A DNA stretch of 64,000 nt from an uncultured Clostridia bacterium. GTDB taxonomy: Bacteria; Bacillota; Clostridia; TANB77; CAG-508. The stretch is from NCBI GenBank assembly GCA_934149275.1, contig CAKPEG010000004.1, forward strand, positions 1,806 to 65,805, read 5' to 3'. A model generated the notes under the pieces. That model was not told where the DNA came from and did not search any database. It worked only from the letters and a program-made list of their open reading frames with translations. This document shows, in pieces, positions 2,242 to 60,207 of the stretch (positions within the stretch are counted from its first letter, which is position 1; each line of letters begins with the position of its first letter). Made by a program: the position numbers and the translations under genes.

Positions 2242-2262
2242 AAATATTAATTATAGAAAAAA

Positions 2263-2385
2263 GAAAATATTATATTGATTTTTTAGTTCCTTGCTAAAAT
2301 ATTTTCCCACCTACTAAACTTCGTTTAGAAGGTTAGGGAAAAACTTTCAAACTGCGCGTCACTCAAAAATCAATATAATATTTTC
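2263..2385 (-). repeat. Family-A palindromic MITE-like repeat, copy A1 (core inverted relative to the other copies)
   Basis: ~22-bp terminal inverted repeats GAAAATATTATATTGATTTTT. The core is the reverse complement of the core at 14852, 22846, 49040 and 54140. Confidence 0.9.
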
Positions 2386-2425
2386 TTAACAATTTTTAAA
2401 ATTTAATTATTAATATGTAAGTTCA

Positions 2426-2962
2426 TTATTTATCTTTTTTATCATTATCATCAGAAAGAAAAAATCTTTCAACATATAATTTATGTGCAAATGATAAAAC
2501 AACACTTTTTAATAGTTTATGTTCAATAGAAATTGATGAAGTAATTTCATATTCGGTACCGTTAAAAACAGCCATAACAGCATTTTCAAGTTCCATACAA
2601 AATTGATCATAAGCTACAACCAAATCACTAATCTTTCCTGCAAAAGAAATTAATTGTGAAATATTATTTATACTATATACTTGTTTTAATGTACAAATAA
2701 CAAAAAGATAAGCGATATGTTCACGACTATATTTCTTTTTAGTTGGTGCTGGAATAACTTGTTGTTTAACGTAATTATTAATCATTGTTTTAGTTATAAC
2801 AGGATTTTCCTCAGAACTAATATATGGATTTAAATATGTATCTAAATAAGTTACAAGTTGATCCAAATAAATATCTATAGCAGGAAATTCACTCCATCTT
2901 GGAATATGAAATTCATTTATTTTTGTTTCATTAATATTTTCTAAAATTTTCTTTTTACTCAT
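2426..2962 (-). CDS. DUF1836 domain protein
   Basis: Motifs IPRWSEFPAIDIYLDQLVTYL and TKTMINNYVKQQVIP. Start moved to the MSKKK ATG because the upstream ATG overlaps the GGAGG RBS. Confidence 0.7.
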   Translation of the reverse strand: MSKKKILENINETKINEFHIPRWSEFPAIDIYLDQLVTYLDTYLNPYISSEENPVITKTMINNYVKQQVIPAPTKKKYSREHIAYLFVICTLKQVYSINNISQLISFAGKISDLVVAYDQFCMELENAVMAVFNGTEYEITSSISIEHKLLKSVVLSFAHKLYVERFFLSDDNDKKDK

Positions 2963-3076
2963 ATATCTCACTTTCCTCCACACAATAATACCACACGGTC
3001 AGATTTTAGTCAATGGATTGACATGTTTAAGAGTATATGGTAATCTAGTAAAGAATACTAGATGGTGGAGGTATTT

Positions 3077-8204: not shown

Positions 8205-9203
8205 ATGAATTTCATAGAAGAAATGAAAAAGAAGGCAAGAACCGATATAAAGACAATTGTACTTCCAGAAGCGGAAGACAAAAGAGTTCTTGAAGCAGCA
8301 AGCAAAGTTGAAAAAGAGGCATTTGCTAAAATAATATTAATAGGAAATATTGAAAAAACAAAAGAATTAGCAAAAGAAAATAATATAGACATTACAAACA
8401 TTGAAATTATTGATCCAGAAAAATCAGAAAAATATGCTGAATATGTACAAGCTTTTTATGAATTAAGAAAAGCAAAAGGAATTACAGAAGAAGATGCAAA
8501 AAAAATAATTAAAAATCCGGTATACTTTGGAATGATGATGGTAAAAAGAGAAGATGCTGACGGACTTGTGTCAGGAGCAGCTCATTCAACATCAGATACT
8601 TTAAGACCAGCACTTCAAATTCTAAAAACAGCACCAGGAACAAAACTTGTTTCAGCGTTTTTCTTAATGAACGTTCCAAATTGCGAATATGGTGAAAATG
8701 GAATTTTTGTATTTGCAGATAGCGGATTAAATGAAAATCCAGATAGTGATAAGTTAGCAGAAATTGCAGCATCATCTGCAAAAAGTTTTGAACAATTAGT
8801 TGGGAAAGAAGCAAAAGTAGGAATGCTTTCATATTCAACATATGGAAGTGCAAAATCCGAATTAACAGAAAAAGTAATCGAAGCTACAAAGTTACTTAAA
8901 GAAAGATATCCCAACATTAAATCTGATGGAGAATTGCAATTAGATGCAGCAATAATTCCTGAAATTGCAAAAAGCAAAGCACCAGAAAGTGAAGTGGCAG
9001 GACAATGTAATACATTAGTATTTCCCAATTTAGATGCTGGAAATATAGGATACAAATTAGTACAACGTTTAGCAAAAGCAGAAGCTTATGGACCTTTATG
9101 TCAAGGAATTGCAAAACCAGTAAACGATTTATCTCGTGGTTGCTCAAGTGATGATATAGTTGGAGTAGTTGCAATAACTGCAGTACAAGGACAAACAAAA
9201 TAA
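8205..9203 (+). CDS. pta: phosphate acetyltransferase
   Basis: 332 aa. Typical Pta sequence (IVLPEAEDKRVLEAA, GLVSGAAHSTSDTLRPALQI, NDLSRGCS). Confidence 0.92.
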   Translation: MNFIEEMKKKARTDIKTIVLPEAEDKRVLEAASKVEKEAFAKIILIGNIEKTKELAKENNIDITNIEIIDPEKSEKYAEYVQAFYELRKAKGITEEDAKKIIKNPVYFGMMMVKREDADGLVSGAAHSTSDTLRPALQILKTAPGTKLVSAFFLMNVPNCEYGENGIFVFADSGLNENPDSDKLAEIAASSAKSFEQLVGKEAKVGMLSYSTYGSAKSELTEKVIEATKLLKERYPNIKSDGELQLDAAIIPEIAKSKAPESEVAGQCNTLVFPNLDAGNIGYKLVQRLAKAEAYGPLCQGIAKPVNDLSRGCSSDDIVGVVAITAVQGQTK

Positions 9204-9257: not shown

Positions 9258-10460
9258 ATGAAAATATTAGTAGTAAACTGTGGAAGCTCATCATTAAAAT
9301 ATCAATTAATAGATATGGAAAATGAAAAACTTTTAGCAAAAGGAAATTTTGAAAGAATAGGTGAAAAAGAATCTTTTGTTACACATAAAGTAAACGGAGA
9401 AAAATATGTAGTAAAAGAACCTGTAAAAGACCATGAAGAAGCTTTGAAAATAGTATTACAACAATTAGTACACAAAGATTATGGTGTAATAAAAGATTTA
9501 TCAGAAATAAATGCAGTAGGACACAGATTAGTACATGGTGGAGAAATATTTAACCAATCAGTTTTAATAACAGAAGATGTTATTAAGAAATATGAAAGTT
9601 GTTCAAGCTTAGCACCATTGCACAATCCAGCAACAATATTAGGAATCAGAGCTTGTCAAAAAGAAATGCCAGGAGTTCCAATGTGTGGAGTTTTTGATAC
9701 AGCCTTCCATCAAACAATGCCGAAAGAAAATTACTTATATCCAATTCCATATGAATACTATGAAAAATATGGAATAAGAAAATATGGATTCCATGGAACA
9801 TCACATCAATTTGTTTCAAAAAGAGCTGCAGAAATCATAGACAAAAAAGATGGAGATTTAAAAATAGTTACATGTCACTTAGGACAAGGTGCATCAATTT
9901 GTGCAATAAAAAACGGAGAATCACAAGACACATCAATGGGATTATCACCATTAGGTGGAATAGCGATGGTAACAAGATCTGGAGACTTAGATCCATCAGT
10001 AGTTACAGAAATAATGGAAAGAGAAAACTTATCAGCAAAAGAAGTTAACACAATATTAAATAAAAAATCAGGATTATATGGAATAACAGGATTAGATCCA
10101 GATTTTAGAGAAATAGAGTTAGCATCTTATAAAGATGACCAACCAAAAGCACAAGTTGCAATCGAACTATTCACACAAACAATAGCACAATTCATAGCAA
10201 AATATGCAGTAACATTAAGAGGAATAGATGCAATAATCTTCACAGGGGGAATTGGAGAAAACCAAATTAATATAAGAAAGAAAATCTGTGAAGACTTAGA
10301 GTGGATGGGAGTTAAACTTGATTTAGAAAAGAACAACGTAAGAAGTGTAGAAACAAAAATATCAAGCGAAGATTCAAAAGTTGAAGTTTATATTATCCCA
10401 ACAGACGAAGAAATGGTAATAGCAAGAGATACAAAGAGAATTGTAGAAAATAATAAATAA
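9258..10460 (+). CDS. ackA: acetate kinase, paralog 1
   Basis: Motifs NCGSSSLKYQL, GHRLVHGG, YGFHGTSH, TRSGDLDP, PTDEE. Confidence 0.92.
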   Translation: MKILVVNCGSSSLKYQLIDMENEKLLAKGNFERIGEKESFVTHKVNGEKYVVKEPVKDHEEALKIVLQQLVHKDYGVIKDLSEINAVGHRLVHGGEIFNQSVLITEDVIKKYESCSSLAPLHNPATILGIRACQKEMPGVPMCGVFDTAFHQTMPKENYLYPIPYEYYEKYGIRKYGFHGTSHQFVSKRAAEIIDKKDGDLKIVTCHLGQGASICAIKNGESQDTSMGLSPLGGIAMVTRSGDLDPSVVTEIMERENLSAKEVNTILNKKSGLYGITGLDPDFREIELASYKDDQPKAQVAIELFTQTIAQFIAKYAVTLRGIDAIIFTGGIGENQINIRKKICEDLEWMGVKLDLEKNNVRSVETKISSEDSKVEVYIIPTDEEMVIARDTKRIVENNK

Positions 10461-10467
10461 TTGAAAA

Positions 10468-10502
10468 AAACTAGAAGTTTTTGTAGAACTTCTAGTTTTT
10501 TT
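10468..10502 (+). terminator. intrinsic terminator after ackA paralog 1
   Basis: Stem AAACTAGAAGTT / AACTTCTAGTTT followed by a T-run. Confidence 0.8.
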
Positions 10503-10738
10503 GCCTCAAAAGGTTGATTTTTAGCCTAAAACCTTGATATAATAAAAATACGTCTTTATAATTTTACATTATAAAAATAAATCGTATTCGTACATTGATA
10601 TCGCGAATGAAATTTAATTATAATTTTAGCAGGACTAAATATAATATAAATTCTAAGTGCTAATCAAGTATAGCTAAGTAGCATACTTGCCTAATCGGCA
10701 TGCTACCTAAAAAAGAAAATATTAAGGGGGAAGCTAAT

Positions 10739-11923
10739 ATGAAAGTTTTAGTTTTAAACTGTGGAAGTTCATCTTTGAAATGTCAATTGATCGATATGGA
10801 GAAAAACGAAAGAATTATGAAAGGACACTATGACAGAATAGGAGGTGCAAGATCTTCACTACGATTTAATGTAAGAGGAGAAAAAACAGTAATTGAACAT
10901 CCTGCAAGAGATTTTGAAGAAGCGATAGGAGAAATCTTAAACTTATTAGTAAGTGATGAATACAAAGTTATAAAAAGCTTTGATGAAATAGGAGCAGTAG
11001 GACACAGAATAGTACACGGAGGAGAAAGATTTAAAGAATCAGTAGTAATAAATGATGATGTAATAGATGCTATAAAAGAGTGCATAACATTAGCACCATT
11101 ACATAACCCAGCAGGTTTGGCAGGAATATATGCATGTCAGAAACTATTACCAAACGTACCAATGGTAGCAGTATTCGACACATCATTCCATCAAACAATA
11201 CCAGAAAAAGCATTTATATATCAATTGCCATATAAATATTATGAAGACTATAAAATAAGAAAATATGGATTCCACGGAATTTCACACAGATATGTTGCAA
11301 ACAGAATATCAGAAATTCTTGGAAGAAAAGATTTAAAAATAATAAATTGCCATCTTGGACAAGGTGCATCATTATGCGCAATTAAAGATGGAAAATCAAT
11401 AGACACAACAATGGGACTAACGCCACTAGCAGGCGTTCCAATGGGAACAAGATGTGGAGACGTTGACCCATCAATCATACCAACAGTAATGAAATTATAT
11501 GATATTCAACCAGACGAAATGTTAAGAATAATGAACAAAGAATCAGGAGCTTGGGGAGTATCAGGAGTTTCAACAGACTTTAGAGATATAGAAAGAACAG
11601 CAGCAGACGGAGATGAAAGATCAATTTTAGCACTAGAAAGTAGAGCATACATAATTGCACAATATATTGCAAAATTTATTGTAACTCTAAACGGGGTTGA
11701 TGTAATAACATTTGCAGGTGGAATTGGAGAAAATGGATTCGAAGAAAGAGAAAGAATTTGTGGATACTTAGAATGCTTCGGAATAAAATTAGATAAAGAA
11801 AGAAATCTAACAAGAGGAGAAGAATATAAAATATCAAGCGATGATTCAAAAGTTGATATTTACATAGTACCTACAAATGAAGAAATTGTAATAGCAGAAG
11901 ATGCATACAATTTAACAAAATAA
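10739..11923 (+). CDS. ackA: acetate kinase, paralog 2
   Basis: Motifs NCGSSSLKCQL, GHRIVHGG, YGFHGISH, TRCGDVDP, PTNEE. Start at the MKVLVLN ATG, preceded by an AAGGGGG RBS. Confidence 0.9.
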   Translation: MKVLVLNCGSSSLKCQLIDMEKNERIMKGHYDRIGGARSSLRFNVRGEKTVIEHPARDFEEAIGEILNLLVSDEYKVIKSFDEIGAVGHRIVHGGERFKESVVINDDVIDAIKECITLAPLHNPAGLAGIYACQKLLPNVPMVAVFDTSFHQTIPEKAFIYQLPYKYYEDYKIRKYGFHGISHRYVANRISEILGRKDLKIINCHLGQGASLCAIKDGKSIDTTMGLTPLAGVPMGTRCGDVDPSIIPTVMKLYDIQPDEMLRIMNKESGAWGVSGVSTDFRDIERTAADGDERSILALESRAYIIAQYIAKFIVTLNGVDVITFAGGIGENGFEERERICGYLECFGIKLDKERNLTRGEEYKISSDDSKVDIYIVPTNEEIVIAEDAYNLTK

Positions 11924-11933
11924 AAATAAATCA

Positions 11934-11966
11934 TACTGGTGATAAAAGGTCGCCAGTATTTTTTTA
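11934..11966 (+). terminator. intrinsic terminator after ackA paralog 2
   Basis: Stem ATACTGGTG / CGCCAGTAT followed by a T-run. Confidence 0.75.
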
Positions 11967-12004
11967 TAAAAATTTCGGTACAAAGCTGATTATACAAAAA
12001 ACTA

Positions 12005-12033
12005 TTGATATAAAAAAATATTAATGTTAAAAT
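12005..12033 (+). promoter_or_regulatory. sigma-A type promoter upstream of ackA paralog 3
   Basis: TTGATA, 17 nt spacer, TAAAAT, with a TG extension. Confidence 0.45.
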
Positions 12034-12072
12034 TTGAACAGAAAAATTTAAAAGAAGGAAGTTAAATTAAGT

Positions 12073-13266
12073 ATGAAAATTTTAGTATTAAATTGCGGAA
12101 GCTCTTCTTTAAAATTCCAATTGATAAACATGGAAAACAACGAAAGATTAGCTAAAGGAAATTTTGAGAGAATAGGTGGAATGAAAACCACATTAAAATT
12201 AAACGTAGGAGGCAAGAAAGAAGAATTAGTTCACATTGCCAGAGACTACGATGAAGCAATAAGTTTTGTATTAGAAGTTTTATTAAAACCAGAATATAAC
12301 ATAATAAAATCATTAGACGAAATAACAGCAGTAGGACACAGAATAGTACACGGAGGAGAAATGTTCAGCAAATCCGTACTAATAAATGATGACGTAATAA
12401 AAGAAATTGAAAAATGCATAGACTTAGCGCCATTACACAATCCAGCAGGAGTAGCAGGAATCAAAGCTGCCAAAAATGCATTACCAAACGTACCAATGGT
12501 AGCAGTATTTGACACAGCATTCCATCAAACAATGCCAGCAAAAGCATATATATATCAAATACCTTACAGATATTACACAAGCTACAAAATAAGAAAATAC
12601 GGATTCCATGGAGCAAGCCATAAATATGTAGCTGAAAGAGTTTCACAAATATATGGAAGAACAGAAGACTTAAAAATAATAAACTGTCACCTAGGACAAG
12701 GTGCATCAATATGTGCAATTAAAGATGGAAAATCAGTAGACACATCAATGGGATTAACACCACTAGCAGGAATACCAATGGCAACAAGATGTGGCGATAT
12801 AGATCCAGCAATAATTCCTTATGTAATGAAAAAAGATAATTTACAACCTGAAGATATAGAAGATATATTAAATAAACAATCAGGAGCATGGGGAGTATCA
12901 GGAGTTTCATCAGATTACAGAGATATAGAAGACGGATATAATATGAAAGATCCAAGATCAATATTAGCACTTGAAAGCCAAGCATACAAAATAGCACAGT
13001 ACATCGGGCAATACATTATCTCACTTGGAGGCTTAGACGTTCTAACATTTGCAGGAGGCGTTGGAGAAAACGGAATAGAAACAAGAGAACGAGTATGTAA
13101 ATACCTAGAACCATTTGGAATTAAGATAGACACAGAATTAAACAACATTAAAGGAAAAGAAAGAAAAATAAGCACAGAAGACTCAAAAGTAGATATCTAC
13201 ATAATACCAACAAATGAAGAATTAATGATTGCAAAAGAAACAGAAGAACTAGTTAAAAATTCATAG
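12073..13266 (+). CDS. ackA: acetate kinase, paralog 3
   Basis: Motifs NCGSSSLKFQL, GHRIVHGG, YGFHGASH, TRCGDIDP, PTNEE. Confidence 0.9.
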   Translation: MKILVLNCGSSSLKFQLINMENNERLAKGNFERIGGMKTTLKLNVGGKKEELVHIARDYDEAISFVLEVLLKPEYNIIKSLDEITAVGHRIVHGGEMFSKSVLINDDVIKEIEKCIDLAPLHNPAGVAGIKAAKNALPNVPMVAVFDTAFHQTMPAKAYIYQIPYRYYTSYKIRKYGFHGASHKYVAERVSQIYGRTEDLKIINCHLGQGASICAIKDGKSVDTSMGLTPLAGIPMATRCGDIDPAIIPYVMKKDNLQPEDIEDILNKQSGAWGVSGVSSDYRDIEDGYNMKDPRSILALESQAYKIAQYIGQYIISLGGLDVLTFAGGVGENGIETRERVCKYLEPFGIKIDTELNNIKGKERKISTEDSKVDIYIIPTNEELMIAKETEELVKNS

Positions 13267-13392: not shown

Positions 13393-13394
13393 TA

Positions 13395-13423
13395 TTGCTA
13401 GATTAAAAGAATCGTGGTATAAT
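13395..13423 (+). promoter_or_regulatory. sigma-A type promoter for the MazF-fusion gene
   Basis: TTGCTA, 17 nt spacer, TATAAT, with a TG extension (TGGTATAAT). Confidence 0.5.
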
Positions 13424-13543
13424 ACCAACATGTTTCATATAATTTCATAGTTATATTTTGCTATGAACCGAAAATGTCAGAAAAGGAGGAGGTATTACAA
13501 GTATTAATAACGGTGTTAATTTTCTCAAAAAGGAGGAGTTCAA

Positions 13544-14779
13544 ATGTTTCAAAAAGAAACATTGTCATCAAATGCTTCAGAAAAGAATAAAACGTGTATA
13601 TCATCACGGACACAAAAATATAATTTGAAATATCCGAGAGTTAAACGTGGAGAATTATATATTTGTGATTTTGGAGAACCTTATGGAAGTGAGCAAGGCT
13701 ATAAAAGGTTTGCTTTAATAGTGCAAAATAATAGAGGAAATCGAGTATCACCTACTACAATAGTTGTAGCGTGTACCACTAAAAAGAAAACCAATTTACC
13801 AGTTCACTATCAGTTCAATCTTTCCCCAAGCATAATGAAAGACTACAACCAAAAACGAATAGGAGAAGAAGTCGATGGAAATACCATATTAGCAGAGCAA
13901 ATAAAGACAGTAGACAAAAAAAGATTACGTAAATTTCTTGGAACAATGACAGATGAATTTATGGATGAAGTACAGAAAGTTATAGATATATCGCTAGATT
14001 TGAAAAGAGATACAGTAAAGTCAGTACAGGATTTAAGTATCATACAGATTCAGCTACTCGCAAAAGCTAATATAGAAAAACTTTTAGAAATTTCTCGGAC
14101 TATAGAGCCAGACGGGATTAAAATAAAGCGGATAATTGAATTATTTGGCTTTGATTTAGAATCAGAGGGGGCGCAATATTTAGTTAAAGCAATTTGCTTA
14201 GCTACCAAAGCAGACTATTCTGATCTAGAAAATTTATGTGAAGAAATTTCTAAAGAGAAGCACACTTTATCCCAAGAGAAAATGAAAGCAATAATTGTAA
14301 CTACAATAAAAGAAAAATTCAATTTTGAAACTTCTGTAGCAATTGAGTTCATTAGATTGATAAGTATACTTTTAGTTAAAGAACCAATTCCAGAGATTAA
14401 GGAAATTGAGTCACTGGAAAATAGCAAAGGAAAAATCGAAAATCTTTTGTGGAAATACTTAAAAAAAGATTTAGAAAAAATAGATTATTCTATGACGGTT
14501 GAGGAGAACATAGACTACTTCTTAGATAGTATTGGTATGTCTACAGATGAAATAATAATGCAATCATTTGTTATTGCTTGTAATACAAAAAGAATAACCT
14601 ATGCGAAGATTATCAATCAGCTTAAAGAAATGTATCCTGAAAAAATGAGTACAGAACTTAGAAAAACTTTGAGAGATAATTTTAAAAAATGGTTAGAAAA
14701 GAATCCAGAGTTAGCGACGCAGTGCAGACAAATTTCAATTATGAATTTACTTAAACTCTTTGCAAAAATGTTTGCATAA
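13544..14779 (+). CDS. MazF/PemK-fold endoribonuclease toxin domain fused to a ~260-aa helical C-terminal region of unknown function
   Basis: Residues ~30-160 match the MazF/EndoA pattern (RGELYICDFGEPYGSEQGYKRFALIVQNNRGNRVSPTTIVVACTT ... ILAEQIKTVDKKRL ... DEFMDEVQKVIDISLDL). A strong AAGGAGGAG RBS is present. The C-terminal part has two helical repeats. Confidence 0.7.
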   Translation: MFQKETLSSNASEKNKTCISSRTQKYNLKYPRVKRGELYICDFGEPYGSEQGYKRFALIVQNNRGNRVSPTTIVVACTTKKKTNLPVHYQFNLSPSIMKDYNQKRIGEEVDGNTILAEQIKTVDKKRLRKFLGTMTDEFMDEVQKVIDISLDLKRDTVKSVQDLSIIQIQLLAKANIEKLLEISRTIEPDGIKIKRIIELFGFDLESEGAQYLVKAICLATKADYSDLENLCEEISKEKHTLSQEKMKAIIVTTIKEKFNFETSVAIEFIRLISILLVKEPIPEIKEIESLENSKGKIENLLWKYLKKDLEKIDYSMTVEENIDYFLDSIGMSTDEIIMQSFVIACNTKRITYAKIINQLKEMYPEKMSTELRKTLRDNFKKWLEKNPELATQCRQISIMNLLKLFAKMFA

Positions 14780-14789
14780 AATCGCTAAA

Positions 14790-14822
14790 AACAGGTGGGA
14801 GATATTTCTCCCACCTGTTTTT
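14790..14822 (+). terminator. intrinsic terminator
   Basis: Stem AACAGGTGGGAGA / TCTCCCACCTGTT followed by TTTT. Confidence 0.85.
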
Positions 14823-14851
14823 ATATATTATTAATGATTTTTAGACATAAA

Positions 14852-14973
14852 CGAATATTATATTTGATTTTTGAGTGACGCGCAGTTTGAAAGTTTTTCC
14901 CTAACCTTCTAAACGAAGTTTAGTGGGTGGGAAAATATTTTAGCAAGGAACGAAAAAATAAATATAATATTCG
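14852..14973 (+). repeat. Family-A palindromic MITE-like repeat, copy A2
   Basis: TIRs CGAATATTATATTTGATTTTT / AAAAAATAAATATAATATTCG with the conserved core GAGTGACGCGCAGTTTGAAAG...CTAAACGAAGTTTAG... Confidence 0.9.
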
Positions 14974-14980
14974 TAAAATG

Positions 14981-22804: not shown

Positions 22805-22829
22805 AGGGGCTACAATCAGTAGTCCCTTT
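22805..22829 (+). terminator. intrinsic terminator after spoVS
   Basis: Stem AGGGGCTAC / GTAGTCCCT followed by TTT. Confidence 0.6.
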
Positions 22830-22845
22830 ATTAATTATAGAAAAA

Positions 22846-22969
22846 GAAAATATTATATTTGGTTTTTGAGTGACGCGCAGTTTGAAAGTTTTTCCCTAAC
22901 CTTCTAAACGAAGTTTAGTAGGTGGGAAAATATTTTAGCAAGGAACGAAAAAATAAATATAATATTTTC
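22846..22969 (+). repeat. Family-A palindromic MITE-like repeat, copy A3
   Basis: TIRs GAAAATATTATATTTGGTTTTT / AAAAAATAAATATAATATTTTC. Outer flanks are TTAATTATAGAAAAA and TCAACAAT. Confidence 0.9.
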
Positions 22970-23077
22970 TCAACAATAAATAATAATACGCATTAGCTTT
23001 AGCACAAAATAACAATCATAGTCTTGAAACAAAAATAAAAATAGTATATTATAATCAAAGATGAAACGAGGTGAAAA

Positions 23078-32879: not shown

Positions 32880-32909
32880 TGTAGCAACTACAGATATAGT
32901 CTTTTTTTT
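32872..32909 (+). terminator. riboswitch expression-platform terminator
   Basis: Stem GACTTATCTGTAG / CTACAGATATAGTC followed by T8. Its 5' arm overlaps the aptamer P1 3' strand. Confidence 0.7.
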
Positions 32910-33056
32910 ATATAATAGGAAAGTTCTCCGAACTTCCTATTATATAAAATAACAATGCACAGAAATTTGCTCTGCAAATTTCGCGCGCGAACAAAGACGC
33001 GGACTTAAAAATGTTATAATTGGTGCAAATGTTATTAATGTCCGCTTTTGTTCTAT
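32909..33056 (+). repeat. Family-B structured repeat, copy B1
   Basis: Three hairpins: TATATAATAGGAAAGTTC/GAACTTCCTATTATATA, GAAATTTGC/GCAAATTTC and GAACAAAGACGCGGAC/GTCCGCTTTTGTTC. About 150 bp aligns with 40872-41020. Confidence 0.85.
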
Positions 33057-40846: not shown

Positions 40847-40872
40847 AAGTTAGTGCTAGCCACTAACTTTTT
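40847..40872 (+). terminator. intrinsic terminator
   Basis: Stem AAGTTAGTG / CACTAACTT followed by TTTT. Confidence 0.7.
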
Positions 40873-41020
40873 ATATAATAGGAAAGTTCTCTGAACTTCC
40901 TATTATATAAAAATAATAATGCACAAAAATTTGCTTTGCAAATTTCGCACACGAACAAAGACGTGGACTTAAAAATGTTACAATCAGTACAAAGGCTATA
41001 AATAGCCCGCTTTTGTTCTA
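40872..41020 (+). repeat. Family-B structured repeat, copy B2
   Basis: Colinear with 32909-33056, with the same three hairpins and an internal TGTTACAAT box. Confidence 0.85.
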
Positions 41021-43686: not shown

Positions 43687-45558
43687 ATGAAAAAAACTTT
43701 TAGTATATCAATAATACTTATAATGATATTAGTTTTACAAATGATATTACCATTATACACAAATGCTGTAAAAATAAATAATGAAGAAGAAAAATTAATA
43801 GGAGCAGGAGAAAATTCAATTAATGTAAGCTTAAAACGTGACAGTGAAGATAAAAACAAAATAAATATTACAGCTACAGATTCAGCTTATAAGATAACAG
43901 AGCTAAAATATGTACATAAATATATAAAGATAGAAGAAATAGAATACTTTGAAGCTGATAACGAAGATGTACATACTATTTCAATCACACCTGCTCAAAA
44001 AATAGAGCAATCATTTGAGATGGATGGCTATGGATCATATACAGTATATGTAAAAAATGAAAAAGGTGATAGATATTTAAGTAGAATGACAATAAAAGAT
44101 CCAGCTGAAATGCCTGATATAACTCTAACAAGAGATTCAGATGATATGCGTAAATTAGAAATACAAGTAACAAGCAAAAATAATAAAATAGTAAAAATAA
44201 AAATCGCCAGAAAAGAAAAATATGATGATAAAATCGATTTTGAAACTCAAGGTGAAGAATTAGAATTTGAACCAAGCAATAATGTAACTGTAAAATACAC
44301 ATCAGCTACTCAAAATGGAATATATGTAATATATGCAGAAGATGACCAAGGAAATAAATCAACTTCACAAACATATTTAGGTGAAACTAAAACTCCAATT
44401 CAAGCAAAAACAACATTAGACAATAAAAACAGAAAAGCACAAATAGAAATAGAAGATAGCTTATGCAAAATTGTAAAAGTTAAAGTTGCTAAAAAATCAG
44501 AAATAAATAACATAAACGACTTTAAGACAGAAGGAGAAGATATTGAGATAACATCAGATAATAGAGTTGAAGTAGAATATGTTGCTCCAGAAGATGACAC
44601 ATATATGTTTTATATAGAAGACGAAGCTGGTTACAAGAAAATGATTCAAATGCGAATTACAAAAGAAAATTCTATAGATATTTCTGTTTCACAAGATGAT
44701 AATGACAAGAAAATTGTAACAATAAAAGCAACTGATTCAATTTGCGATATTGTAAAAATAAAAGTTGCATTAGGGGAAAATATCGATAGTGACTACTTTA
44801 AAACAAACGGACAAGAGCTTCAAATAACTCCTGGTAAAGAAGTTGAAGTTAAATGTTCAGTAAGTGAAAATTGTATATTAAATATATATGTTGAAGATGA
44901 AGAGGGATATAAAGTAATTACTACTAGAAATATTATAGGCATACCAGTAGATGATAATAAACCGGACGATAGCAAACCAGATGATAGCAAACCAGATGAT
45001 AGTAAACCAGATGATAGCAAACCAGATGATAGTAAACCAGATGATAGTAAACCAGATGATAGTAAACCAGATGATAGTAAACCAGATGATAGCAAACCAG
45101 ACGATAGCAAACCAGATGATAGCAAACCAGACGATAGCAAACCGGACGATAGTAAACCAGACGATAGCAAACCAGATGATAGCAAACCAGATGACAACAA
45201 ATCAGATGATAACAAGCAAGATGACAGTAAATCAGACAATAACAAACAAGATAATAATAAATCAGACGATAATAAGTCAGATAATAATAATAAAAACAGC
45301 AATACTCAAAATGATAATAAACAACAAAATAACAATTCAAACAATAATAAACAAAATAATACAAACAACAATTCAAATCAAAAAGAAACAACAACTAATA
45401 ATCAATCAAATATAAATAATAATTCAGCAAACAGTTCAACAACAAGCCAAAACAATTTACCTAAAACAGGTTGGAACAACATAATGTTAGTAATAACAAC
45501 TGTAATTGTTGCAATTTGTGCAGTTGTAAGTTTTGTGAAATATAAGAAAATAAAATAA
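43687..45558 (+). CDS. LPXTG-anchored cell-wall surface protein with four ~90-aa repeat domains and a PDDSK/N-rich stalk
   Basis: Signal peptide, four related beta-rich modules (..IVK[IV]K[IV]A..), a PDDSK x15 stalk, and an LPKTG sorting motif followed by a hydrophobic helix and a KYKKIK tail. Confidence 0.9.
   Translation: MKKTFSISIILIMILVLQMILPLYTNAVKINNEEEKLIGAGENSINVSLKRDSEDKNKINITATDSAYKITELKYVHKYIKIEEIEYFEADNEDVHTISITPAQKIEQSFEMDGYGSYTVYVKNEKGDRYLSRMTIKDPAEMPDITLTRDSDDMRKLEIQVTSKNNKIVKIKIARKEKYDDKIDFETQGEELEFEPSNNVTVKYTSATQNGIYVIYAEDDQGNKSTSQTYLGETKTPIQAKTTLDNKNRKAQIEIEDSLCKIVKVKVAKKSEINNINDFKTEGEDIEITSDNRVEVEYVAPEDDTYMFYIEDEAGYKKMIQMRITKENSIDISVSQDDNDKKIVTIKATDSICDIVKIKVALGENIDSDYFKTNGQELQITPGKEVEVKCSVSENCILNIYVEDEEGYKVITTRNIIGIPVDDNKPDDSKPDDSKPDDSKPDDSKPDDSKPDDSKPDDSKPDDSKPDDSKPDDSKPDDSKPDDSKPDDSKPDDSKPDDSKPDDNKSDDNKQDDSKSDNNKQDNNKSDDNKSDNNNKNSNTQNDNKQQNNNSNNNKQNNTNNNSNQKETTTNNQSNINNNSANSSTTSQNNLPKTGWNNIMLVITTVIVAICAVVSFVKYKKIK
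44962..45201 (+). repeat. in-frame 15-bp tandem repeat (CCAGATGATAGYAAA, 15 PDDSK units plus one PDDNK) inside the surface-protein gene
   Basis: Counted directly: 16 consecutive 15-nt units with only synonymous wobble differences. Degenerate units continue to about 45300. Confidence 0.95.
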
Positions 45559-49020: not shown

Positions 49021-49039
49021 ACGTTTATTAATTATAGAA

Positions 49040-49164
49040 GAAAATATTATATTTGATTTTTGAGTGACGCATAGTTTGAAAGTTTTTCCTCAGGTATTCT
49101 AAACGAAGTTTAGTAGGTGGGAAAATATTTTAGCAAGGAACAAAAAAATAAATATAATATTTTC
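49040..49164 (+). repeat. Family-A palindromic MITE-like repeat, copy A4
   Basis: Same TIRs and core as the other A copies, with a diverged 5' arm of the central hairpin (CCTCAGGTATT). Outer flanks are TTAATTATAGAA and TTAATAAT. Confidence 0.9.
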
Positions 49165-49298
49165 TTAATAATAAAAGTGCTTTTAACCGCCATGTATTGA
49201 AAAATATGTTATTGACATATTAATATTTAATGAATAAAATTAGATTGAAGAAATACTATAAGATAAAACATAAAATAAATGAAAGAGAGGAAAATAAT

Positions 49299-53875: not shown

Positions 53876-53890
53876 GGTTATATATTCAAT

Positions 53891-54119
53891 GAAAAATTTT
53901 ATATTAACTTTTTGAATCACCGCGCAGGGACCAAACGAACGAAGTGAGTTCGATTGAAGCATTCTACCCGGTTAGAAAATAAAAAATATCAATTGACTAT
54001 AAAGCCAATTGATATTTTTATTTTCTAAATTTAAAGAATGCAGGGCAGCAAGGTGTGAGAAAATTAATATAAAATTTTTCAACCGCGGTGGTTCGAAAAA
54101 GCTTAATATAAATTTTTTC
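53891..54119. repeat. Family-C composite palindromic repeat (TIRs related to family A) enclosing a 22-bp-stem hairpin
   Basis: Left end GAAAAATTTTATATTAACTTTTTGAATCACCGCGCAG against right end (reverse complement) GAAAAAATTTATATTAAGCTTTTTCGAACCACCGCGG. An extra internal right-end copy ends at 54080. The central hairpin spans 53972-54026. Confidence 0.8.
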
Positions 54120-54139
54120 TAGAATAAAAGTATAAAAAA

Positions 54140-54257
54140 GAATATTATATTTATTTTTTAGTGACGCGCAGTTTGAGAGTTTTTACCTAACCTTCTAAAC
54201 GAAGTTTTGTGGGTGGTAAAATCTCTTAGCAAGAAGCAAAAAATAAATATAATATTC
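54140..54257 (+). repeat. Family-A palindromic MITE-like repeat, copy A5
   Basis: Diverged copy. The outermost pair of the central hairpin has changed from C-G to A-T on both arms (compensatory). Confidence 0.85.
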
Positions 54258-54269
54258 TTTTAAAAGTTA

Positions 54270-60116: not shown

Positions 60117-60143
60117 AAAGAGAGCATATCAAGCTCTCTTTTT
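60117..60143 (+). terminator. intrinsic terminator
   Basis: Stem AAAGAGAGC / GCTCTCTTT followed by TT. Confidence 0.7.
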
Positions 60144-60145
60144 GC

Positions 60146-60180
60146 ATAATAGAGAAGTTCTTAGAACATCCTATTATATA
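60146..60180 (+). repeat. partial Family-B repeat (hairpin-1 module only, degenerate)
   Basis: ATAATAGAGAAGTTCTTAGAACATCCTATTATATA matches the first hairpin of B1/B2 and again directly follows a terminator. Confidence 0.6.
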
Positions 60181-60207
60181 AATACATTAAGAAAGGAAGA
60201 TTTTTAA

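Follow-up and report, generated by a model that had tools for sequence, protein, structure and literature searches.

The palindromic element between spoVS and an SBP_bac_5 gene belongs to a family of about 125-bp imperfect hairpins, here called family A, in which the conserved sequence lies inside the element, the complementary arms vary in mirror image, and the core has been turned round in place at two loci. Its description as a palindromic repeat that is dispersed, non-coding and non-autonomous, and that has many further copies outside the window (the whole 64-kb stretch of DNA that was analysed), made from the sequence without database searches, is supported. We give about an even chance to the explanation that family A is an old selfish palindrome of a REPIN/MITE-like kind, which is maintained and flipped by conversion within the palindrome. 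On the best reading, the host clade is an uncultured human-gut Clostridium and the broad class is the one that holds REPINs and ERIC- or Correia-type MITEs.

Family A copies in the window

Alignment of the five intervals proposed in the sequence-only reading found a copy in each of them, with boundaries that were refined by an HMM built from the copies (nhmmer). The copies, and the terminator that precedes the focal one, are as follows.

2262..2387, minus strand: copy A1, core reversed (nhmmer 133.7 bits)
14850..14972, plus strand: copy A2, downstream of the bidirectional terminator 14786-14823 of the MazF-fusion gene
22805..22827, plus strand: intrinsic terminator hairpin of spoVS, 18 nt 5' of the A3 left arm (context)
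22845..22970, plus strand: copy A3, the focal copy, a complete hairpin lying between the spoVS terminator and the SBP_bac_5 promoter
49038..49165, plus strand: copy A4, 3' of gpr, from a subfamily whose upper stem differs on its left side (CCTCAGGTA)
54137..54259, plus strand: copy A5, with perfect 24-bp arms

By alignment, the copy at 2263-2385 is the reverse complement of the other four, and once it is turned round the mean column identity across the five copies is 84%. Where shuffles predict 1.65 occurrences of the arm motif, the window has 12; the family was also recovered independently by a repeat finder (as its family D5). There is no conserved ORF in the ~125-bp copies. The window does lack a transposase, as had been noted: in the 58 ORFs scanned there is no domain of a transposase or of a site-specific recombinase, and RecA and DprA are the sole recombination proteins among them.

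A position just after an intrinsic terminator had been proposed as the usual siting. This applies to A2 and A3, which follow plus-strand terminators, and to A1, which lies beside one on the minus strand, but not to A5, which is preceded by a repeat of another family (family C, described below) and by no gene terminator. More specifically, A1 sits between convergent genes, 39 nt past the stop codon of a DUF1836 gene (2426-2983, minus strand), and adjoins the bidirectional terminator of the ORF 1816-2199. Upstream of A4, an AT-rich hairpin can be seen in the sequence, which fails the G+C criterion of the scan tool.

Inside the ORF 43687-45558 (623 aa, without a Pfam match), positions 44845-45384 hold a long run of tandem 15-nt repeats, of which at least 24 registers were picked up, and this ORF probably encodes a pentapeptide-repeat or low-complexity surface protein. 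At 9258-13266, a phosphotransacetylase gene is followed by three tandem acetate kinase paralogues with about 67-81% DNA identity.

Hairpin anatomy and conservation

The focal copy forms one continuous imperfect hairpin with an RNA MFE of -40.6 kcal/mol (z = -6.5), compared to -18.4 +/- 3.4 kcal/mol for its shuffles. The strong central hairpin noticed earlier exists, but it is just the tip of this element-long hairpin, whose parts are listed here from 5' to 3'.

22845..22867, plus strand: left arm (the 'TIR'), whose sequence differs from copy to copy and is mirrored in the right arm
22868..22880, plus strand: left half of the box, GAGTGACGCGCAG, nearly invariant and asymmetric, pairing partially with the right half
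22881..22937, plus strand: upper stem and apical stem-loop (CTAAAC-GAA-GTTTAG), with a fixed G.U pair and several covarying pairs
22938..22946, plus strand: right half of the box, GCAAGGAAC, conserved
22947..22970, plus strand: right arm, complementary to the left arm

Conservation was read from an alignment of 59 distinct full-length family A copies. The best-conserved columns are all internal, namely AGTGACGCGCAGTTTGAAAGTTTTT on the left side, the apical CTAAAC-GAA-GTTTAG, and TTTTAGCAAGGAAC on the right side, and the AT-rich arms are the least conserved part of the sequence. The terminal inverted repeats, given as ~22 bp in the sequence-only reading, are indeed complementary over 22-27 bp, but across the 59 copies they are not conserved in sequence as transposase-bound TIRs are. 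Instead, the two arms of a copy change together, as in the pairs AATATT/AATATT, AACATT/AATGTT, TTGTATT/AATACAA, TAGTATA/TATACTA, and TTCTATT/AATAGAA. In the box, the conserved unpaired bases of the two halves form a 2x2 loop with GC opposite AA, and family A has in addition a GA/GA step that may form sheared G.A pairs in tandem.

Covariation and strand asymmetry

The covariation of the stem persists in the 59-copy alignment, for which 15 of the 40 pairs predicted by RNAalifold show double changes. An explicit count gives 98.2% of cells paired, with 110 double-change cells and 39 extra pair types; none of 500 shuffles attains any of the three values, and sliding the partners by 1-3 columns lowers the pairing to 44-56%. 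The change from C-G to A-U in A5, which had first been taken as evidence of selection on the stem, is real, but since 17 of the 59 aligned copies have the same change it is a subfamily marker and does not count as a separate event. The covariation of the family is far broader than this single change.

Nevertheless, the step from compensatory change to selection on the stem is unsafe, since between orthologous copies several substitutions are exactly mirrored and the core can be inverted in place. Template switching in palindromes yields multi-base compensatory changes and loop inversions for which selection is not needed (PMC8794818). Mirrored changes together with core inversion are footprints of this process, so that the covariation is no proof of selection on the stem.

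The two strands of the core differ in the mismatches that they tolerate. On the plus strand of the core, G.U is found in 102 cells at 18 pairs and A.C in 12 cells at 9 pairs (46 versus 12 cells when one fixed G.U pair is left out). In 57 of 59 copies this strand has the lower RNA MFE (mean difference 8.4 kcal/mol), whereas with DNA energy parameters both strands fold about equally well. This asymmetry hints at tolerance at the RNA level; because the counts ignore shared ancestry, we take it as weak evidence.

In-place inversion of the core

At the A5 locus, the window and the contigs L061 and L086 show one orientation of the core, and the contigs L003 (from UMGS1672) and L059 show its reverse complement. 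The flanks and the 24-bp arms are collinear and nearly identical across both orientations, which also have subfamily-specific substitutions in common, indicating that A5 is the same copy inverted. A second inverted locus, with both flanks collinear, is found between L011 (from UMGS1994) and L109, L115, and L068. There, three substitutions separate the arms of L011 and L109, each mirrored in the partner arm, and the core differs at one position. The inverted core measures ~75 nt.

At least two independent assemblies stand behind each A5 orientation and, since the arms are shorter than the final k-mers of the assemblers, an inversion in place would not be an expected assembly artefact. Core flipping is slow: at A5, the five contigs whose strains are identical in TraX all have the same orientation, and A2 has one orientation in 9 of the 9 loci where the element was detected.

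A third inversion candidate, L002 compared to L035 and L116, was downgraded, as these contigs have one flank in common and unlike arms; recombination between copies or a chimeric contig is more likely in this case. Beside the flipped copy of the second locus, a flank of ~35 nt (L011 about 997-1035, L109 about 9045-9083) is wholly different in orthologues that are otherwise 95% identical. In the contigs L022, L064, L065, L070, L087, L156, and L002, left and right flanks of different loci are joined through the repeat, which points to chimeric assembly or to genuine recombination among copies. Many further contigs stop inside a family A element.

Distribution beyond the window

The repeat is abundant outside the window, and its absence elsewhere, set beforehand as the outcome that would speak against a repeat family, was not observed. 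The exact core 24-mer is found in 12 stretches of the species-representative genome collection, all in three 'uncultured Clostridium sp.' MAGs (UMGS1994, UMGS1672, and ERR1855544_bin.37). Several of these matches lie at contig ends, where a repeat that interrupts short-read assemblies would be expected. In metagenome contigs, a looser pattern scan, which produces many chance matches, followed by an HMM filter gave at least 89 family A copies in 77 stretches, corresponding to roughly 36 distinct loci. Human-gut assemblies were the metagenome source of all the family A copies among the matches listed.

No match to the element was obtained by BLASTN in the PLSDB plasmids or the INPHARED phages, and viral contigs gave chance pattern matches alone, of which none was confirmed by the HMM. 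At the Rfam gathering threshold, tRNAs are the only hits in the window, and the best permissive hits are plant miRNA hairpins, at 20 bits versus a gathering score of 140 bits. No description of family A was found in the literature on Clostridium MITEs or dispersed invertons. Family A is undescribed in the Rfam, plasmid, phage, and literature resources searched.

Target sites, mobility, and occupancy

After maximal extension of the palindrome in the 59 copies, no subfamily shows a consistent direct repeat of fixed length that would indicate a target-site duplication. The apparent duplications 'CG' at A2 and 'AAAAG' at A5 were dismissed, being accounted for by palindromy. When ORFs of 120 aa or longer from the 637 kb that surround the 77 loci were clustered, neither a parent IS nor a multi-copy gene emerged; the clusters obtained correspond to syntenic orthologues and one polysaccharide deacetylase paralogue. 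A search for solo arms as marks of a full-length IS gave four weak matches, one of them the solo arm in the L013 mosaic described below, and no IS. A distant pair of family C ends, considered as a possible autonomous element, was also rejected, since the sole such pair sits within an ordinary ORF.

Contigs that are 93-97% identical to the window span most of it, and in these A1, A3, A4, and A5 are occupied and there are no extra copies. Identical occupancy across 3-7% divergence gives no sign of recent transposition. A2 is absent in contig L122 only, where the MazF-fusion gene and its terminator belong to a 73%-identical replacement allele; as the whole segment is replaced and diverged, the boundaries of A2 cannot be read from this comparison. 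No clean empty site was found through homologues of SpoVS, the MazF fusion, Gpr, or TraX.

Regarding this same segment, window 13393-14980 and L122 11686-13180 show 73% identity inside flanks that are 96-97% identical. This pattern suggests an allelic replacement by recombination of the MazF(PemK)-fusion segment, including its terminator and A2.

In more distant relatives, the equivalent 3' spacers contain other repeats, with a family B element behind spoVS and a C-like element and a 40-nt tandem array behind gpr. In a sister species (L167-L169, about 2180-2325), the ~40-nt tandem array (AAGACATAAACGAGTGCTCTGACGCGGGCAATTCTCCCGGC) lies in the 3' spacer of gpr, which is the site of A4. Family A looks old and largely fixed, and in these genomes the spacers behind terminators look like places where repeats of several families generally accumulate.

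If the element moved as a single-strand transposon coupled to replication, an orientation bias might be expected. Compared with the local gene-strand majority, used as a proxy for the direction of replication, the orientation of the element is 27/40 in raw counts and about 16:11 for unique loci, which is not significant. The label MITE-like, which had been proposed for the element, fits its small size, multiple copies, and palindromic structure, but agrees less with arms that vary in sequence, with the finding of no target-site duplication in 59 copies, and with that of no parent IS in the window and 637 kb of flanks.

Promoter-like site in the right arm

A consensus match alone identifies a promoter-like site in the focal copy, with equivalents in the other four copies of the window.

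22935..22963, plus strand: promoter-like TTAGCA-N17-TATAAT, reading out of the right arm
2297-2269 (minus strand), 14940-14968, 49130-49158, and 54226-54253: equivalent promoter-like sites, TTAGCA-N16/17-TATAAT

TTAGCA-N16/17-TATAAT is kept in all five window copies and in 46 of the 59 aligned copies. Since the -10 hexamer is in an arm, both arms have a -10 and, since the -35 is in the core, a flip of the core would reverse the direction of the site. The six promoter-like matches compare to 4.2 expected, which is near chance density in AT-rich DNA, and both hexamers overlap conserved stem positions. We looked for a downstream gene to drive, and found that in 13 of 29 unique loci the 3' neighbour is transcribed away from the element, which is no enrichment. 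An outward promoter-like site is attractive but unsupported.

Outer motif and related repeats

Family A extends beyond its arms into an outer motif, and is related to a second, longer palindromic family.

22829..22840, plus strand: outer left motif TATTAATTATAG, degenerate, also at 2245-2256 and 49026-49037; part of the repeat
22974..22985, minus strand: outer right motif, degenerate (reverse complement TATTATTTATTG), with 2 mismatches to the left motif
~53880-54090, plus strand: family C, a ~210-250-bp palindromic repeat just upstream of A5

TATTAATTATAG is absent elsewhere in the window at 0-1 mismatch, and in the three window copies it keeps to the terminator side regardless of the direction of the core. 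It is homologous to TAATTATTGCAAAAG, which forms the outer end of the GAACATT subfamily and of family C. The AT-rich ends of family C are homologous to those of family A (alignment score of 58 for the left ends, against a mean of 18 and a maximum of 32 for shuffles), and its internal loop, C-GC-GC / GC-AA-G, is the same as in family A. These common ends and box suggest a common recognising factor.

Other copies of family C are found in L054 (520-760 and 11630-11870) and in L100, L046, L049, L081, and L128. The left arm GAATCACCGCGCAGGGACCAAACGAACGAAGTGAGTTCGATTGAAGCATTC is conserved among the copies, and their terminator-like central hairpin differs from one copy to another, as if the centre of the element were exchangeable. 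Family A occurs adjacent to, fused with, or nested inside family C, and the nested arrangement is the best evidence here for past movement of family A.

In L013, positions 620-745 are a mosaic: a solo left arm of the A type comes first, followed by the left half of family C in truncated form and then by an entire family A copy, and the outer motif and arm of this copy duplicate the solo one. This mosaic looks like the product of recombination between related ends. A further post-terminator repeat, family B, is present at 32904-33039, 40867-41003, and 60138-60203 of the window and at about 1790-1960 of L148, L152, and L153. It is composed of a hairpin, TATATAATAGGAAAGTTC-TCYG-GAACTTCCTATTATATA, followed by a second module (AATGCACAGAAATTTGC...GCGCGCGAACAAAGACGCGGAC), and in a sister species it lies directly behind the spoVS terminator, the site of A3 in the window. 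The outer end of family B (ATAATAGGAAAG) resembles the outer motif of families A and C.

Possible origins of family A

An old selfish palindrome that converts itself would have spread in the past with the help of a trans-acting enzyme recognising the folded single strand and the box, not the arm sequence; by analogy, an HUH/Y1-type enzyme such as those of REP/IS200 systems may serve as the model of this mobiliser. Copies would have landed preferentially just behind terminator hairpins and would be essentially fixed today. Template switching within the palindrome, or recombination from arm to arm, would keep the arms complementary during replication and occasionally flip the core, and purifying selection need not be the main cause of the complementary arms. 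Indeed, the best reading of the mirrored arm changes and core flips is that either of these two processes fits better than selection. If transcription reads through, the plus strand of the core would give the stabler RNA hairpin, which may affect the 3' ends of neighbouring mRNAs, and the outward TTAGCA-N17-TATAAT may fire weakly.

A classical MITE, i.e., a deletion derivative of an IS with a DDE transposase, mobilised in trans through its terminal inverted repeats, would also have inverted arms, a small size, intergenic multi-copy dispersal in both orientations, and a capacity to nest in another repeat, and the similar ends of families A and C recall MITE families served by one transposase. 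We consider this origin unlikely, given that no target-site duplication is seen in 59 copies, that variation is greatest in the arms and is mirrored between them, that neither the window nor 637 kb of flanks contains a parent IS, and that occupancy is stable across 3-7% divergence. The mirrored changes might instead reflect selection at the RNA level, if family A were a structured RNA family of cis-acting 3'-UTR or read-through hairpins (e.g., RNase III targets or stabilisers) or of small RNAs. The strong covariation, the tolerance of one strand for G.U far above A.C, with a lower RNA MFE in 57 of 59 copies and symmetric folds under DNA parameters, and the conserved internal loop with its possible tandem G.A motif all agree with this, as does a gene reading towards the 5' side of the core in 51 of 63 copies, or about 20 of 30 unique loci. 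Yet intrinsic terminators precede most copies, the core has been flipped in place with the copy retained, orientation relative to neighbouring genes is near random after merging orthologues, and Rfam gives no match; moreover, dozens of copies beside unrelated genes are unlike a regulator. An RNA family is, in our opinion, quite improbable.

The flips themselves could be the work of a site-specific recombinase, making family A an inverton family in which the -35 (TTAGCA) switches between the TATAAT of the two arms and transcription is reversed. Both core orientations do occur at identical loci between strains (the A5 and L011 loci), the promoter-like site is present in 5 of 5 window copies and 46 of 59 copies overall with its -10 inside the inverted repeat, and mirrored arm changes would keep the partner sites recombining. 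However, one recombinase would have to accept many sites, as the arms differ between copies, and the window encodes no invertase. Moreover, each locus keeps one orientation at A5 (five contigs of close strains) and A2 (9 of 9 loci), both orientations usually face the 3' ends of convergent genes with a drivable gene in 13 of 29 unique loci, and the promoter-like matches are near chance density (6 versus 4.2 expected). An inverton family is therefore very unlikely. The same low probability goes to a more far-reaching proposal, in which the copies would act as genome-wide bidirectional promoter switches, toggled by a box-recognising enzyme to control neighbouring genes or antisense transcripts, and would be multi-copy invertons and mobile elements at once.

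Comparison with known systems

Much work has been done on small palindromic repeats of Proteobacteria (REP/REPIN, ERIC, Correia), and little on those of Clostridia. The class that family A belongs to is itself familiar; what is new is the in-place flips, the inverted pattern of conservation, and the kinship with family C. The combination of variable complementary arms with a fixed internal loop points to recognition of a folded single strand, and the internal-loop box provides a concrete motif for seeking the enzyme. On the practical side, these repeats fragment short-read assemblies and give rise to chimeric contigs in the gut MAGs of this clade, a concern for the binning of such genomes.

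REPIN systems are described mainly in Proteobacteria, whereas the host of family A is a Clostridium. A REPIN has two conserved REP units at its ends and a less conserved spacer, whereas in family A it is the internal box that is conserved, and the variable arms at the ends cannot be recognised as REP units. No RAYT/Y1 transposase is found among the 58 window ORFs. REPINs are hairpins in which compensatory changes are common, and a single-copy, structure-specific enzyme copies their folded single strand (PMC3116915). Family A shares with them extragenic hairpins of roughly 100 nt, a copy number in the tens to hundreds, and long persistence at orthologous sites, and in both any mobiliser is single-copy or absent from the neighbourhood (PMC3116915). 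Given the free complementary arms, the invariant loop, the lack of a duplication and of a local transposase, and the persistence of the copies, a REPIN-type element fits better than a DDE-type MITE, in line with the preferred reading of an old, self-converting palindrome.

The ERIC and Correia-type MITEs of enterobacteria and Neisseria are 100-160-bp intergenic imperfect palindromes that occur in both orientations, fold as RNA, and sometimes carry outward promoter elements; they also have conserved TIRs and a TA target duplication. Family A is comparable in size, intergenic siting, its two orientations, RNA folding, and promoter-like site, but neither conserved TIRs nor a TA duplication is seen in it. 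To our knowledge, in-place inversion of the core has not been described for ERIC or Correia-type elements.

Such an inversion is reminiscent of invertons, the invertible promoters known from gut bacteria, with which family A shares a short segment between inverted repeats, the presence of both orientations, and a promoter-like sequence inside. Invertons are locus-specific, located beside particular operons, and dependent on an invertase, whereas the highly similar copies of family A are dispersed to dozens of unrelated 3' intergenic sites and have a uniform orientation in close strains.

The last comparison is with a process rather than an element, i.e., the hairpins shaped by template switching, in which multi-base compensatory changes arise in one step and the sequence between the stem halves is inverted (Monttinen and Loytynoja 2022, PMC8794818). 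Family A shows both effects. Most loop inversions reported so far measure ~4 nt, whereas that of family A is ~75 nt and is itself structured. Family A is a caution for covariation-based RNA discovery, and it offers a natural test case for selection on structure versus template-switch conversion.
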